Assembly (NCBI GenBank): GCA_963667465.2
Contig: CAXXDN010000002.1
Location: 384,001-448,000 of the forward strand
Direction: 5' to 3'
Length of the DNA stretch: 64,000 nucleotides
DNA from: Dehalococcoidia bacterium
Lineage (GTDB): Bacteria; Chloroflexota; Dehalococcoidia; UBA2979
Notes under the pieces: model-generated
Told to the model about the DNA's origin: nothing
The model's input: only the letters and a program-made list of their open reading frames with translations
Database searches by the model: none
Position numbers and translations under genes: made by a program
Shown here: piece after piece, positions 20,038 to 43,335 of the stretch
Position numbering within the stretch: the first letter of the stretch is position 1
Layout of the letters: each line of letters opens with the position of its first letter

Positions 20038-20210
20038 GCGGGCTGCGCCCGCTCCCCCTCACCCCCGCCCTCTCCCGCGAGGGGAGAGGGGGCCGGAGGG
20101 GACGCTACTCGCGTGGGTGTGCTCGATAGCCGCGGAGTTGGCCGCGGACCGAGGGGGGCGTGCGGCGCAGCCCCCACAGAAAGAACATCCGAGGGCGGGT
20201 GGGTGGGCCA
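20038..20210 (+). repeat. REP-like palindromic repeat plus G-rich tail module
   Basis: CCCTCACCCCCGCCCTCTCCC-N-GGGGAGAGGGGGCCGG and AGCCCCCACAGAAAGAACATCCGAGGGCGGGTGGGTGGG; near-identical copies at about 43215 and 52775. Confidence 0.85.
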
Positions 20211-22831: not shown

Positions 22832-23905
22832 GTGGACCTCCAACCAACAGACCTCCAGGAGCTGTTGCGCGGCAACGCCGAGGACGTCCTCGGGCGCGAG
22901 GCGCCCGCCGACCGCGTCCGCGAGATCGAGCAGGCAGGCGAGCCCGACGCCGCGCTCTGGTCGACGCTCGTCGACCTCGGCTGGACCGGGCTCGCGGTGC
23001 CCGACGAGCACGGGGGCCAGGGCGGCTCGCTGCTCGACCTCGCCGTGATCGTCGAGCAGCTCTGCCGCCACGCCGTGCTGACGCCCTTCGTCCCGACCGC
23101 CCTCGCCGCGATCGTGGTCCAGCGGCACGGCGACGAGGCGCTGCAAGCCGAGCTGCTGCCCCGCATCGCCGAGGGTGCGACGGTCGCGATCGCTCTCGCC
23201 GAGGGCCACGGCGAGCTGCGCGACCTCGCGGCGACGTACGCGGACGGCGCGGTCAGCGGCGAGAAGCGTTTCGTCGAGTACGCGCGCAGCAGCGACCTGC
23301 ACCTCGTCGCCGCGAGCCGCAACGGCACACCGGGCCTCGCGATCGTCCCGGCCGGCGCCGCCGGTGTGCGCGTTGAGCAGGACCTCGTGAGCATCGGCAA
23401 GACGCCGCAGGCGATCGTCGCCTACGAGGGCGCACCGGCCGACGCCTGGATGGAGGGCGAGGCAGCCGTAGAGGATCTGCGGCGGCTCGGATCGGCGCTG
23501 GCCTCGCTGGAGTCGTACGCGCACGCGCAGCGCGCGCTCGACATGACGGTGGACTACGTGCAGACGCGCGTGCAGTTCGGGCGGCCGATCGGGTCGTTCC
23601 AGGCGGTGCAGATGCGGCTCGCGGACCTTGCGACGCGCGTGCAGGCGAGCAACTTCCTGGTGCACGAGCTGCTCTGGCACTTCGATGAGGGCAGCGACGA
23701 CCCGGAGCAGATCGCGGTCGTGAAGGCGGTGACGGCGCAGACGGTGGCGCAGGTCACGCAGGACTGCCACCTGCTGCACGGCGGCATCGGCTTCATCACG
23801 GAGTACGACCTCTACTTCCACACGATCCGTGGCAAGGAAGCCTCGCTGCGCTTCGGTGGCGCCGGCGAGGCGCTGCGCACCGTCGCCGACGCCCTCCTCG
23901 ACTAG
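22832..23905 (+). CDS. Acyl-CoA dehydrogenase (degenerate partner subunit, heteromeric-ACAD type)
   Basis: RVQFGRPIGSFQAVQ, HGGIGF; lacks the TEP motif; tandem with the previous ACAD. Confidence 0.88.
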   Translation: MDLQPTDLQELLRGNAEDVLGREAPADRVREIEQAGEPDAALWSTLVDLGWTGLAVPDEHGGQGGSLLDLAVIVEQLCRHAVLTPFVPTALAAIVVQRHGDEALQAELLPRIAEGATVAIALAEGHGELRDLAATYADGAVSGEKRFVEYARSSDLHLVAASRNGTPGLAIVPAGAAGVRVEQDLVSIGKTPQAIVAYEGAPADAWMEGEAAVEDLRRLGSALASLESYAHAQRALDMTVDYVQTRVQFGRPIGSFQAVQMRLADLATRVQASNFLVHELLWHFDEGSDDPEQIAVVKAVTAQTVAQVTQDCHLLHGGIGFITEYDLYFHTIRGKEASLRFGGAGEALRTVADALLD

Positions 23906-23920
23906 CCGCGCGCACGCGCG

Positions 23921-23982
23921 ATCCGGTCCCCTCGCCCCTTGCGGGAGAGGGCGGTCCGGCTCCCTCGCCCCTTGCGGGAGAG
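23921..23982 (-). repeat. Two REP-like copies; the second is split by IS110
   Basis: CCCTCGCCCCTTGCGGGAGAG occurs twice; the second copy resumes at 25473 (GGCGGGGGGTGAGGGG). Confidence 0.85.
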
Positions 23983-24003
23983 ACACCCCAGGGTGCTAAG
24001 GCG

Positions 24004-25227
24004 TCAAGCGGCGAGCTGTTCGCGGTCGTGGCGGTGCGCCCAGGCGGTGGCCTCGTCGTAGGGGCGACGTGCCTTCAGGCAGCCGTGGAGGTAGCCGACG
24101 AGGCGGTTGCCGAGAGCGCGCAGCGCCTGGTGGTGGAGGTCGCCCGCGGCGCGGCGGCGGTGGTAGAAGTCATGGCAGCCGGGGCTCGCCTGCAGCGAGC
24201 AGAGCGCCCAGCGGTCCACGGCGTCGGCGAGCCGGCGGTTGCGCACGAAGCGGGCGCGCACGCTGCGCTTGCGGCCCGATGCTACGGTGAGCGGCGAGGT
24301 GCCGGCGTAGTTCCTGCGGGACTTCGCCGACTCGTAGCGTTCGGGGTCGTCCCCGAACTCGCCGAGCACCCGGGCGCCGAGCACGACACCGAGACCGGGC
24401 AGGGAACGGTAGATTGCGGCGTCCGGGTGCTGCTCAAAATGGCTCGTGAGCGCGGCCTCGAGCTCCGTAAGCTGACGGTTGATCTCGCTGATCTGCGCGA
24501 CCGCCGCGCGGGTGCTCGCGGCGAACGCCCGGCTCACGGCAGGCGGCGCCTCGAGTTGCGGGGAGCGCAGCGCGTCGCGCACCGCGGCGGCGCGCCGCTC
24601 GAGGTTGCGCTGACGTCCGCCGCGGCGCAGCGCCGAGCGGATCTTCGACGTGCTCAGGCGCGCCGCCTCGCGCGGCTCGCTCGCCCGCGCCAGCACGCCC
24701 AGGGCGTCGCCGTGCGCGAGGCTGGGGAAGGCCTGCAGGGCAGCCGGGAAATACTCCCTGAGGGCGTTGCGCAGCCGGTTGGTCTGGCGCACGCGGTCCC
24801 AGATCAGCTGCTGGTGGGCGCGGGCGAGGATGCGCACCGCGGCAGCCTCGTCGCTGTCGCCGGCCAGCGGACGGTGGTTGTGGCGGTCGGTGCGCACGAG
24901 GTCGGCGAGCAGCTTCGCGTCGGCGGCGTCGGACTTGGCGCCGCCCAGGTGGTGACGCTCACGGTAGCGCGCCGCCGAGCGGGGGTTGATCGCGTAGACG
25001 CGGTAGCCGGCCGCGAGCAGGGCCGTGACCCAGGGTCCGCGGTCGGTCTCGATGCCGACCACGACCGCGCCCGGGTCTGAGGCGTGCTCGGCAACCAGTT
25101 CGTGCAGCACGGCGACGCCCGCGACGCCCTCGGGCAGCCGCCTGGCGGCGAGCCGTTCGCCGGCCTCGTTCATGAGCTGGACATCGTGGTGGTCTTCGGA
25201 CCAGTCGTCACCGACGTAGAGGGTCAT
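24004..25227 (-). CDS. IS110 DEDD recombinase/transposase
   Basis: VGDDWSEDHHD, GIET, KSDAADA (RuvC-like DEDD); C-terminal SLPGLG...YAGTSP...ASG. Confidence 0.95.
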   Translation of the reverse strand: MTLYVGDDWSEDHHDVQLMNEAGERLAARRLPEGVAGVAVLHELVAEHASDPGAVVVGIETDRGPWVTALLAAGYRVYAINPRSAARYRERHHLGGAKSDAADAKLLADLVRTDRHNHRPLAGDSDEAAAVRILARAHQQLIWDRVRQTNRLRNALREYFPAALQAFPSLAHGDALGVLARASEPREAARLSTSKIRSALRRGGRQRNLERRAAAVRDALRSPQLEAPPAVSRAFAASTRAAVAQISEINRQLTELEAALTSHFEQHPDAAIYRSLPGLGVVLGARVLGEFGDDPERYESAKSRRNYAGTSPLTVASGRKRSVRARFVRNRRLADAVDRWALCSLQASPGCHDFYHRRRAAGDLHHQALRALGNRLVGYLHGCLKARRPYDEATAWAHRHDREQLAA

Positions 25228-25264
25228 CGTGCCTCGCTTTCCTGCGCTTCGTGCTGCTGTTTGC

Positions 25265-25460
25265 GACCTGCCGGGCTGGTCCTGCGACGGCCTAATGGAC
25301 CAGTGCTCTCGGGCACGACACCCCAGGAGTGCTGTGGACCACCCGGACGCACCAGCCGGGGCACGGTCTCTCCCTGGAGATCGCAGTGTCTCGGGGAGGG
25401 GCAGTGCTCACCGGCCGGCCGGTCCAAGACCAGTCTCCCAGATCGCTCCAGGGTCCGGTC
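25265..25460 (-). ncRNA. Putative IS110 bridge RNA (target-binding and donor-binding loops)
   Basis: Guide segments match the REP target (25393-25401, 25368-25374) and the circle junction (25317-25327, 25292-25298); each pair flanks an internal hairpin and is closed by a stem; RNA ends are approximate. Confidence 0.8.
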
Positions 25461-25600
25461 GAACCCCATTAGGGCGGGGGGTGAGGGGTCGCCGCGCGCC
25501 AGCGCGGCCAGCAAGGCCGGTAGGGGCTTGTGAGGGCGGAAGCCACAGGTCCCGCGCGTTGACCGCGCACGCGGGGCGTGCGTTCAATGGCCAGGCAGGT

Positions 25601-25676
25601 GCGGGGGTAGCTCAGCTGGTAGAGCATCTGCCTTCCAAGCAGAAGGTCGCGGGTTCGAGACCCGTCCCCCGCTCCA
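25601..25676 (+). tRNA. tRNA-Gly (TCC)
   Basis: GCGGGGG/CCCCCGC acceptor stem, D arm AGCTCAGCTGGTAGAGC, anticodon loop CT-TCC-AA, GGTTCGA T arm, encoded CCA. Confidence 0.97.
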
Positions 25677-25803
25677 CTCACCCACCCGCTGGACCCCGCC
25701 CACAGCCACCATGCGAGATTACGCGCGCGCCCCGGCGACGCCTGTCGGTGGTAGGTTCGCCCTCGTGGCACCGGGTGCACGACGAAGATTCGAGGAGGAC
25801 GGC

Positions 25804-27126
25804 ATGGCGGACGACGGATTTGCGCCGGACTGGGACGCGCTGACCGAGGAAGCGACGGAGCTGCTCTCCGCCTACATCCGCGTCGACACCGTCAACCCGC
25901 CGGGCAACGAGACGCGCGCTTGCGACTTCTACGGCGAGATCCTCGATCGTGAGGGCATCCCCTACCGCGTCTACGAACCCGCTGACGCTCCCGGCCGAGG
26001 CACCCTTGTCGCCACGCTGCCTGGCGACGGCACGGGCGGCAAGCAGTTGATCCTGCTCAACCACACCGACGTCGTCCCTTTCGAGCGTGAGTACTGGACG
26101 GTCGACCCGCTCGGCGGCGAGGTCAGCGACGGCTACATCTGGGGTCGCGGCACCCTCGACATGAAGGGGATGGGCATCATGGAGCTCATCACCTTGCTGC
26201 TCCATCACCGCCACAAGCTGCCGCTGCGGCGTGACCTCACCTTCATCGCCGTCGCCGACGAGGAGGCGGGCAGCGTCTATGGCGCGGAGTTCCTCGCACG
26301 AGAGCACCCGGAGGTCATCGACTGCGTGTGCGTACTGAACGAGGGCGGGCGTGGCAGCACGCGCGCGTTCGGCGTGGAGCGGCCGCTGATGCAGATCGGG
26401 GTGGCGGAGAAGATCCCCTTCTGGGTGCGACTGAGTACGCAGGGCCGTCCCGGCCACGGCTCCGTTCCGACCCCGGACAACGCCGCCGACCGCCTCGTGC
26501 GCGCGTTGCAGCGGATCCAGGACTGGGAGCGGCCCCCGCAGATCGGCCCGGAGCTGCGCGCCTACTTCGAGGGGCTGCACGCTGCGGGCCTCCTCGACGA
26601 GGAGCCGACCGCGGAGACGATCGAGCAGGTCGCCGCGCGTCAGCCGCGAGTCGGGGCGCTGCTCCGGAACACCATCTCCCTGACCACGTTCCAGTCCGGT
26701 GTGAAGCACAACGTGATTCCCGCCGAGGCGAACGCGACCCTCGATTGCCGCTTGCTGCCGGGCTCGGACCCGGACGCCTTCCTCGCCGAAATGGTCGAGG
26801 TGATCGACGACGACCAGGTCGAGGTGGAGGTGGTGCTGCGCAGCTACGGGCCGCCCTCGCCGATCGACTCGGAGCTGTACGAGACGCTGTCCCGGTCGGT
26901 GCGCAACGCGGTCGAGGACGCGGTCGTCGTCCCCTGGACCTCCACGGGGTTCACGGACTCGCGGGTGTTCCGCCGCATGGGCTACCCGGCGTACGGTTTC
27001 ACGCCGGTCTTCGTGCCGCCCTCGGATCAGGCGCTCGGGCACGGCAACGACGAGCGCATCGCGATTGACGGCCTGCGGATGGGGATGCAGATCCTGCATG
27101 ACACCGTGCGCCGCATCTGCGGGTAG
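25804..27126 (+). CDS. M20 family metallopeptidase/acylase
   Basis: NPPGNE, HTDVVP, GRGTLDMKG, ADEEAG, GFTDSR, HGNDE. Confidence 0.92.
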   Translation: MADDGFAPDWDALTEEATELLSAYIRVDTVNPPGNETRACDFYGEILDREGIPYRVYEPADAPGRGTLVATLPGDGTGGKQLILLNHTDVVPFEREYWTVDPLGGEVSDGYIWGRGTLDMKGMGIMELITLLLHHRHKLPLRRDLTFIAVADEEAGSVYGAEFLAREHPEVIDCVCVLNEGGRGSTRAFGVERPLMQIGVAEKIPFWVRLSTQGRPGHGSVPTPDNAADRLVRALQRIQDWERPPQIGPELRAYFEGLHAAGLLDEEPTAETIEQVAARQPRVGALLRNTISLTTFQSGVKHNVIPAEANATLDCRLLPGSDPDAFLAEMVEVIDDDQVEVEVVLRSYGPPSPIDSELYETLSRSVRNAVEDAVVVPWTSTGFTDSRVFRRMGYPAYGFTPVFVPPSDQALGHGNDERIAIDGLRMGMQILHDTVRRICG

Positions 27127-43120: not shown

Positions 43121-43335
43121 GGGCCCTCACCCTCCGCCCTCTCCCGCGGGGCGAGGGGACCGGATCCGCCATCGCACGTCCCGTGTGCGCCCTCGATGGT
43201 TCCGAGCGTTGCGCGCGGGCTGCGCCCGCTCCCCCTCACCCCCGCCCTCTCCCGCCGGGGGAGAGGGGGCCGGAGGGGGGTGGGGGCGCAGCCCCCACAG
43301 GAAAGAAACTCCGAGGGTGGGTGGGTGGGTCCGAG
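43121..43335 (+). repeat. REP-like cluster (two palindromes plus G-rich tail)
   Basis: Copies at 43124-43165 and 43215-43277; GGGTGGGTGGGTGGG at 43315-43329; lies between convergent genes. Confidence 0.88.

Follow-up and report, generated by a model that had tools for sequence, protein, structure and literature searches.

A stretch of 64,000 nucleotides (nt) from a Dehalococcoidia bacterium (contig CAXXDN010000002.1 of assembly GCA_963667465.2), hereafter the window, with positions counted from its first letter, carries at 23983-25470 an insertion sequence (IS) of the IS110 group, with its transposase on the minus strand. This element is very probably a bridge-RNA-guided insertion sequence, mobile by serine/DEDD recombination as shown for IS621; its transcription, its circular form, the binding between RNA and protein, and its activity are what we infer. 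Established here are the anatomy of the element, its copy number, the uniformity of its sites, the covariation of guides and targets in its relatives, the covariation of the RNA stems, the catalytic residues and the predicted fold. By every testable family feature the element belongs to the IS110 group of the IS110 family, and the kind of system is already known, as NCBIfam names the family 'IS110 family RNA-guided transposase'. The element splits a unit of a family resembling repetitive extragenic palindromic (REP) sequences, and the parts of the locus are the following.

23983-25470, minus strand: IS110-group insertion sequence, 1488 bp without the flanking core copies, with 10 full-length genomic copies.
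24004-25227, minus strand: recombinase gene, 407 amino acids (aa), combining a DEDD RuvC-like domain with a Tnp domain that bears the predicted catalytic Ser (Pfam, NCBIfam, relatives and fold).
25228-25470, minus strand: left non-coding end, 243 nt, encoding the predicted bridge RNA (about 25461-25272; pair counts on 29 sequences and covariance model R1).
25471-25472, minus strand: left copy of the CT core (AG on the plus strand), with the left target CCCCGCC before it (CT ahead of AATGG in 10 of 10 copies).
23981-23982, minus strand: right copy of the CT core, with the right target CTCCC after it (CT after GGGGTGT in 10 of 10 copies).
23918-23982, minus strand: right part of the interrupted REP-like unit, together with a further tandem unit (direct repeat D1, 32 nt, 91% identity; family of 42 empty sites).
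25473-25490, minus strand: left part of the interrupted REP-like unit, with the minus-strand sequence CCCCTCACCCCCCGCC (flank reading, copy comparison and site census).

The genome to which the window belongs (2.97 Mb, 70.7% GC, two contigs) contains 10 full-length copies of the element, nine of them identical and one differing by a single change in the linker that joins the two RNA loops, together with an eleventh, incomplete copy through which a contig end runs. On the minus strand, non-coding ends of 243 nt (left) and 21 nt (right) surround the open reading frame (ORF) at 25227-24004. An earlier note on this DNA had proposed that the element splits a REP, and its flanks, junctions and coordinates (23981-25471) are as claimed there: the left flank finishes ...CTTGCGGGAG-AG at 23981-23982 and the right flank opens AG-GGCGGGGGGTGAGGGG at 25471. 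Read on the transposase strand, with slashes for the element boundaries, all 10 copies show ...CC-CT/AATGG...GGGGTGT/CT-, and the same 2-nt CT core stands at both junctions of each; insertion is site- and orientation-specific. The letters following the right core are CTCCC in nine copies and AACCC in one. The seven letters preceding the core are CCCCGCC in five copies, and CCCCTCC, CCCCACC, CCCCCCC, CCCAACC and CGCCCCC in one copy each. Thus, when the flanks of the other copies were listed, as the earlier note had advised, all ten shared the same junctions and the same REP-like family, and none lay at an unrelated site.

This repeat family has the form ..CCCCTCAC-CCCCGCC-CT-CTCCC-loop-GGGAGAGGG-GGCCGGA, and hairpin units of the REP-like type number 243 in the genome; in REP-type targets the core is located within the 5' arm of the hairpin CCCTCTCCC-loop-GGGAGAGGG. 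Empty CCCCNCC-CT-CTCCC sites accompanied by the hairpin were found 42 times in the genome (N is G in 40 and C in two), compared with about 0.2 exact 14-mers expected from composition. Within the window, sites at no more than two mismatches from the guide-implied target lie on the plus strand at 20063, 43240, 52798 and 52887, all four among the 42 empty sites, and also at 43132, with two mismatches; the earlier note had placed the repeat at about 20054, 43231 and 52791, with at least five empty candidate sites in the window, and both statements hold. The REP-like family is the landing site of the element, and its annotation should say so.

The guides through which such a site would be recognized can be read in the left end. 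In IS621, the left target guide (LTG) and the left donor guide (LDG) carry top-strand sequence and pair with the bottom strand, the right target guide (RTG) and the right donor guide (RDG) complement the top strand, and the core is part of these pairings (available text of PMC11208160 and PMC11208158). In addition, handshake guides complement positions 6-7 of the non-cognate, not the cognate, DNA (available text of PMC11208158). On the minus strand, the left end of the window element comprises, in this order, a 5' stem-loop, a target-loop module and a donor-loop module, and the guide halves are separated by the hairpins GAGA..TCTC (25392-25377) and GTGC..GCAC (25316-25303).

25351-25419, minus strand: target-binding loop module (outer stem 25419-25404 with 25364-25351, inner hairpin 25392-25377).
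25272-25345, minus strand: donor-binding loop module (outer stems 25345-25329 with 25288-25272, inner hairpin 25316-25303).
25401-25393, minus strand: LTG CCCCUCCCC (DNA CCCCTCCCC), in the same sense as CCCCGCC-CT and matching it at 7 of 9 positions.
25366-25374, minus strand: RTG GGGAGAG (25374-25368), the complement of CT-CTCCC, plus the handshake AC, which complements donor positions 6-7 (GT).
25327-25317, minus strand: LDG CCUGGGGUGUC (DNA CCTGGGGTGTC), equal to the 10 terminal nt of the element followed by the core C.
25290-25298, minus strand: RDG CCAUUAG (DNA CCATTAG; 25298-25292), the complement of CT-AATGG, plus the handshake GC.

Direct reading bore out the positions previously given for the RTG (25368-25374), the LDG (25317-25327), the RDG (25292-25298) and both hairpins. 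The handshake dinucleotides and the stop of the LDG at the core C are IS621 features that go beyond the earlier note. The target-loop handshake AC is complementary to the donor GT at two of two positions, and the donor-loop handshake GC to the target CC at one of two, its G pairing with the C of target position 7; neither dinucleotide pairs with its own (cognate) DNA. The agreement was compared with chance in 20,000 mononucleotide shuffles of the left end, its first 12 nt excluded. The 11-nt LDG was contained in three shuffles, the 7-nt RDG in 99 and the 7-nt RTG in 810, and all four guides in the right order in none. Both the matches in the donor loop and the layout as a whole lie far beyond chance. 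The match of the left target guide, which had been claimed as well, is present at 25401-25393 and its register is confirmed by the relatives; by itself, on the other hand, it is not significant because the left end is C-rich, an LTG of 8 nt with at most one mismatch being reached in 8437 of the 20,000 shuffles (42%). Comparison with relatives was therefore needed.

In a scan of one genome per species, 243 stretches encoding a relative were found and the best 80 were kept. These best 80 are mostly from metagenome-assembled genomes (MAGs) of Dehalococcoidia, at 75-92% protein identity. Relatives at 67-72% identity come from Acidimicrobiales, Pseudonocardiaceae, other Actinomycetota, Smaragdicoccus and a Mycobacterium MAG, and have the same left-end RNA layout. 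The left end was recognisable in 78 of the 80, each opening with CT/AATGGG. Locus L083, cut at a contig start, was dropped, as were L020 and L026, which possess recombinase genes with no recognisable left-end start; three decayed relatives (L079, L080 and L097) have frames cut after 59, 140 or 8 codons. Six of the 78 lacked one flank, and the 72 rows with both flanks were used to compare guides with insertion sites. They fall into 23 target-loop programmes, with an almost invariant donor loop. Over the 12 non-core positions, guides match their cognate targets at 9.7 positions and non-cognate targets at 4.5; none of 10,000 permutations was as high, a figure that overstates the significance because programmes from related copies are not independent. 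The LTG signal occupies exactly nine positions, the three letters upstream (10-12) being at background. At the right target, agreement is complete across the programmes at positions 1-4, falls to 74% at position 5 and is absent at positions 6-8; L096, whose right end looked mis-called, was excluded from this per-position profile. The predicted target for the clade is therefore 7 + 2 + 4-5 bp long.

Individual loci illustrate how closely the guides follow the flanks. The LTG of L074, CAACAACCT, is met by CAACAACCT in its own flank. In L089, the LTG TGTCAGCCT faces the flank CGTCAGCCT and the RTG complement CT-AGACG faces the flank AGACG; in L043, the RTG complement is CT-TCGTG and the flank TCGTG. 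An LTG register one nt further left, ending at the core C, was considered since the sequence is C-rich, and was ruled out by the non-C-rich LTGs of L018, L074, L086 and L089; these fix the register, so that the ninth LTG letter stands opposite the core T. Across the programmes this letter is U in about 70%, with A or C in the rest, so that the clade seems able to dispense with pairing to the second core base on the LTG side. The donor guide also tracks the donor end, for example in the change of GGGGTGT to GGGATGT in Actinomycetota loci and in the A/C nine nt ahead of the core, to a limited extent and with mismatched cases such as L018 and L036. In L088 and L090, where the flank shows G at target position 7, the donor-loop handshake has C instead of G; L096 has this C as well, but its flanks are unreliable. 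As read from these sequences, the tracking of flanks by guides in the relatives settles both the assignment of the LTG and the bridge-RNA reading. Covariation of guides and targets across homologues, which the earlier note had asked to be looked for, was thus found, with the donor guide following the donor end as well; its reading of an RNA-guided recombinase is borne out by the covariation over 23 programmes and by the IS110 features of the protein described below.

Two groups of relatives bear on where such programmes land. L018, L019, L021-L024 and L072, from the same genus, have the LTG UGGCUCCCU and the same RTG as the window element, and their target is CGGCTCC-CT-CTCCC. This sequence is the opposite strand of the REP hairpin, and the right flanks of L023 and L024 lead on to the CCCCTCAC...CT-CTCCC unit in reverse complement. 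A change of the LTG alone has therefore reversed the orientation of insertion within one repeat; as judged from the guides, two programmes that share one RTG and differ in LTG hit both strands of the same REP hairpin. In the other group (L043-L045, L047 and L048), five of the six copies of one relative have flanks that are identical over more than 40 nt on either side, and the target CCGACCC-CT-TCGTG. The programme of this group appears to land in another repeated sequence, not the REP hairpin.

The REP hairpin itself might partly set the target, a DNA stem-loop beside the core acting as a second gate. This explanation, which adds to the bridge-RNA reading, is rather unlikely. It draws on the position of the core in the 5' hairpin arm of REP-type targets, with 243 such units in the genome, and on the mismatch at LTG position 5, whose tolerance in at least five of the 10 insertions suggests another determinant; moreover, a target stem-loop has been reported as a second layer of specificity for ISPpu10 (available text of 10.64898/2026.03.19.712850). 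However, the relatives L043, L063 and L074 are inserted at sites other than the REP hairpin, and therefore a hairpin is not required by the recombinase clade. A separate observation concerns the choice between neighbouring sites. At G000 C1:864347-864372 (minus strand) a copy lies about 11 nt downstream of the end of an empty-type site, CCCCCCC-CT-CTCCC; there the element used its site and not the adjoining, better-matching one.

At the RNA level, the bridge-RNA reading is supported by the conservation of pairing. A consensus fold was made from 29 distinct left ends with the guides held unpaired, on an alignment (A2) that leaves out the 5' 9 nt. Standard pairs occupy 96.8% of its cells, compared with 26.8-45.3% when the partners are slid by 1-3 columns. 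Compensatory change occurs in 14 of the 34 pairs (61 cells), a value that none of 500 shuffles reached. It affects five of the 14 pairs of the target-loop outer stem, three of the four pairs of the inner hairpin, and 3, 2 and 1 pairs in the outer helices of the donor loop; the donor inner hairpin, being invariant, is uninformative either way. The folding of the left end with homologous ends, as had been proposed, thus gave a two-module structure with compensatory pairs, and the covariance model R1 was built from the same 29-sequence left-end alignment. In the genome, R1 matched exactly the 10 element copies and no orphan bridge RNA. Among 101 related genomes, 11 (that of the window included) have between 1 and 15 matches: matches fall in 8 of the 18 other genomes of the genus, in 10 of the 60 of the family and in none of the 41 from other families searched, many of the genomes that lack a match being fragmented. 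This patchy distribution fits a mobile element. Two other folds were discarded. The single-sequence minimum free energy (MFE) fold of the 243 nt was set aside, as it pairs guide segments with each other. On another alignment (A1), unconstrained RNAalifold joined the opening 5 nt of the element to the RDG, which reflects complementarity of RDG and donor, not an RNA helix. The 243-nt left end encodes a predicted bridge RNA of the IS621 type, and annotation should label it so.

The protein gives further grounds for the family assignment. Its ORF is intact and matches Pfam PF01548 (DEDD_Tnp_IS110; 6.9e-38 over residues 5-161) and PF02371 (Transposase_20; 7.1e-11), as well as NCBIfam NF033542 (185.8 bits, cut-off 140). 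The residues D8, E60, D100, D103 and S317 are invariant in 11 relatives. D8, D100 and D103 align with IS621 residues, E60 is off by one in the HMMER alignment, and S317 aligns with residue S243 of the 8wt6 chain, that is, native S241 (+2 offset, as for D11), the catalytic Ser of IS621. The earlier description of the element as divergent is accurate: identity to IS621 is about 18%, and the single sequence had no phmmer match among PDB sequences at E up to 0.001. A profile of the 11 relatives did reach IS621 (1.7e-11) and ISCro4 (6.6e-12), in two stretches. The AlphaFold model has a predicted local distance difference test (pLDDT) score of 80.1 and a predicted template modelling (pTM) score of 0.71. 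All top 10 Foldseek matches in PDB are chains of ISCro4/IS621 synaptic complexes (E 1e-11 to 1e-9), with template modelling (TM) scores of 0.66-0.68 on target and 17-19% identity, and TIGR-Tas and Nop5 proteins come next. By family, residues and predicted fold, the protein is a bona fide IS110 recombinase. About 80 extra residues stand between its RuvC-like and Tnp parts; in this region, residues ~160-225 (window ~24750-24553, minus strand) form a small predicted helical bundle, with pLDDT above 90, inserted between two long helices at their end. Another observation in the gene is a match at 24322-24403 (plus strand) to the Rfam family Ms_AS-4, an antisense small RNA of Actinobacteria (65.1 bits, gathering score 50, E 5.6e-9), on the strand opposite the best-conserved stretch of the recombinase gene (the LPGLG...GEFGDDPERY region). 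This match may represent a real antisense RNA of IS110-type genes or conserved coding sequence caught by the model.

The right end contains a candidate promoter element.

24002-24007, minus strand: TTGACG, a -35-like motif of the right end that overlaps the stop codon, at a constant distance to the element end among representatives.

The motif TTGAC(G/A/C) is found at this constant distance in 25 of 28 representatives, and it is also kept where it is non-coding (L084, L087-L093). In a circular form of the element, TTGACG would stand 18 nt before T-CT-AAT, and a junction promoter as in IS621 is plausible by analogy. The proposed cycle would begin with the departure of the element as a circle, its right and left ends joined at a single CT, which would place the conserved -35 of the right end beside the left end. 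From the latter, an RNA of roughly 180-190 nt would be transcribed and would adopt a 5' stem-loop and two further stem-loops with internal loops. The donor loop would bind the circle junction and the target loop the REP-like site, and a recombinase tetramer, aided by the two handshake dinucleotides, would then exchange strands at CT. Excision may follow the less efficient or half-match routes reported for IS621.

Besides the isolated LTG match and the dependence among programmes already mentioned, several results weigh against this account. LTG position 5 is U, which gives an rU:dC mismatch at the G variant of the site, and G stands there in 5 of 10 occupied and 40 of 42 empty sites; the position is paired in 78% of the programmes, or 96% with wobble, and close relatives sharing the target have G at it (CCUUGCCC or CCUCGCCC). 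The ninth LTG letter is C, not U, and leaves the second core base unpaired on that side. Of the 23 programmes, two are a poor fit: L061 (1 of 7 LTG positions, perhaps by a one-nt offset) and L096 (2 of 5 RTG positions, with a right end that is probably mis-called). By MFE, the 243 nt fold no more stably than shuffled sequences (z = -0.48). An Rfam search of 23000-26500 at E up to 1, limited to the models of the library, returned no family on the left end (25228-25470). The -10 candidate TCTAAT has five of the six consensus letters, without the conserved A at position 2, and a promoter and terminator scan of the integrated locus gave 0 sites. As for position 5, the site CCCCTCC-CT-CTCCC is the sole perfect guide match in the genome and is occupied, no empty perfect site being present. 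Non-G variants make up 3 of 7 occupied and 2 of 42 empty sites of the exact pattern (Fisher p = 0.017), an enrichment that hints, in small numbers, that the U of LTG position 5 matters. Placed where pairing is the rule, this U may represent an adaptive relaxation through which a single RNA can serve several REP variants.

It is very unlikely that the element is immobile at present and that its identical copies are due to assembly collapse or gene conversion. The assembly is of the metagenome type, in two contigs, one of which ends inside a copy, and all 21 sequencing runs, 20 of which carry the whole or part of the stretch (sponge metagenomes and coded organisms), are of the DNA type and available as assembled contigs, which cannot show a circle junction; among the joints listed, none led from the right end back into the left end. 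However, each of the 10 copies is bordered by unique flanks of its own on long contigs, the ORF and the catalytic residues are intact, the depth of the element is about 6-14 times that of its flanks in three runs, and the one genomic site perfectly matching the guides is occupied. In addition, a related strain appears to have the site empty: one contig of run X9 joins 23980 to 25471 and skips 1490 nt (1488 + 2), which weakly suggests the expected appearance of an unoccupied site, that is, one without the element and one core copy, although the short side of this joint is only 24 letters, all of them REP sequence. A dense cluster near the contig ends (G000 C2:1885000-1904564 and C1:1-5100) comprises about 11 empty REP sites, two full copies and the truncated copy; contig C2 stops inside a copy, and therefore the assembly probably breaks at the element.

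It is also very unlikely that the internal copies of the ends are DNA sites, such as sub-terminal repeats bound by the transposase, without a guide RNA and with an incidental likeness to the target: the donor-loop segments are indeed nearly invariant among relatives, with little covariation by themselves, and the RNA-level support in this organism comes from sequence comparison, but in 14 of 34 pairs (61 cells) the stems on either side of the guides stay paired through compensatory or G-U substitutions, a property of RNA and not of protein-bound DNA, the target-loop halves vary with the flanks in the strand pattern of IS621 (LTG in the same sense, RTG complementary), and the closest solved folds are RNA-bound bridge recombinases.

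The bridge-RNA-guided element of the window thus stands beside several known systems. In the IS110 group the left non-coding end is longer than the right, whereas in the IS1111 group the RNA is located in the right end, which is there the longer one (available text of PMC11208160, which together with PMC11208158 is the source also of the IS621 features below). With the IS1111 group the window element shares the recombinase family and the guide-RNA principle, and it differs in its 21-nt right end and in having the RNA in the left end. Its likeness to IS621 of E. coli extends to the CT core, the longer left end that encodes the RNA, the candidate -35 in the right end, the order of 5' stem-loop, target loop and donor loop, the REP-type natural targets and the DEDD + Ser active site. 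It also includes the 9-nt LTG in the sense of left target plus core, the RTG and RDG complementary to the top strand with the core, the LDG ending at the core C, and the 2-nt handshake guides 3' of RTG and RDG. Differences exist as well. The protein has 407 aa against about 326 and a predicted helical insert (~160-225) without a counterpart in IS621 or ISCro4; the RTG, core included, covers 6-7 nt where that of wild-type IS621 has 4; the RDG is contiguous over 7 nt, against a split pattern; the LDG matches over 10-11 nt, against 8. Furthermore, the host genome is of high GC content and the target repeat family is another one. ISCro4 (PDB 9t56) is the best match both by fold (E 1.1e-11, TM 0.68 on target) and by profile, and the differences are those listed for IS621; this comparison rests on the protein. 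ISPpu9 and ISPpu10 of Pseudomonas putida are likewise IS110-family elements present in several copies in REP or conserved intergenic hairpins (PMC12288879; available text of 10.64898/2026.03.19.712850), in unrelated hosts and repeat families, and are set beside the window element by description. Bridge RNAs have been predicted for 85.7% of the catalogued IS110-group elements, with thousands of insertion sites reconstructed (Durrant 2024; available text of PMC11208160). In the literature searched, no paper was found that links a bridge RNA with Chloroflexota, Dehalococcoidia, sponge symbionts or the actinobacterial IS types named below, although the orthologue tables of Durrant 2024 or of later screens may list the clade. 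As regards nomenclature, the relatives from Actinomycetota may belong with the actinobacterial IS110-family elements of about 400 aa (IS110, IS116 and IS900 type).

With respect to its neighbourhood, the element falls between an upstream ORF on the plus strand (stop codon 23903-23905) and a tRNA gene, and its insertion site is therefore intergenic.

25601-25676, plus strand: tRNA-Gly(UCC), 129 nt away from the element.

Taken together, these data allow the tentative proposal, which we regard as possible although not the likelier outcome, that the clade of ~400-aa recombinases of Chloroflexota and Actinomycetota constitutes a natural reprogramming series, in which a near-constant donor loop is combined with a target loop rewritten at least 23 times, with a loosening through the U of the LTG and with longer guides. 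If this is true, with a 9 + 6-7 nt target and a donor guide of 10-11 nt, the clade could offer longer natural guides than wild-type IS621. The element, a well-preserved instance of a mechanism published in 2024, leaves the picture of how IS110 elements work unchanged. It provides a clean natural example of bridge-RNA targeting from an uncultured, high-GC, sponge-associated lineage, and its 10 sites, the census of empty sites and the different target loops of its relatives form a natural data set on mismatch tolerance, guide length and handshake pairing.

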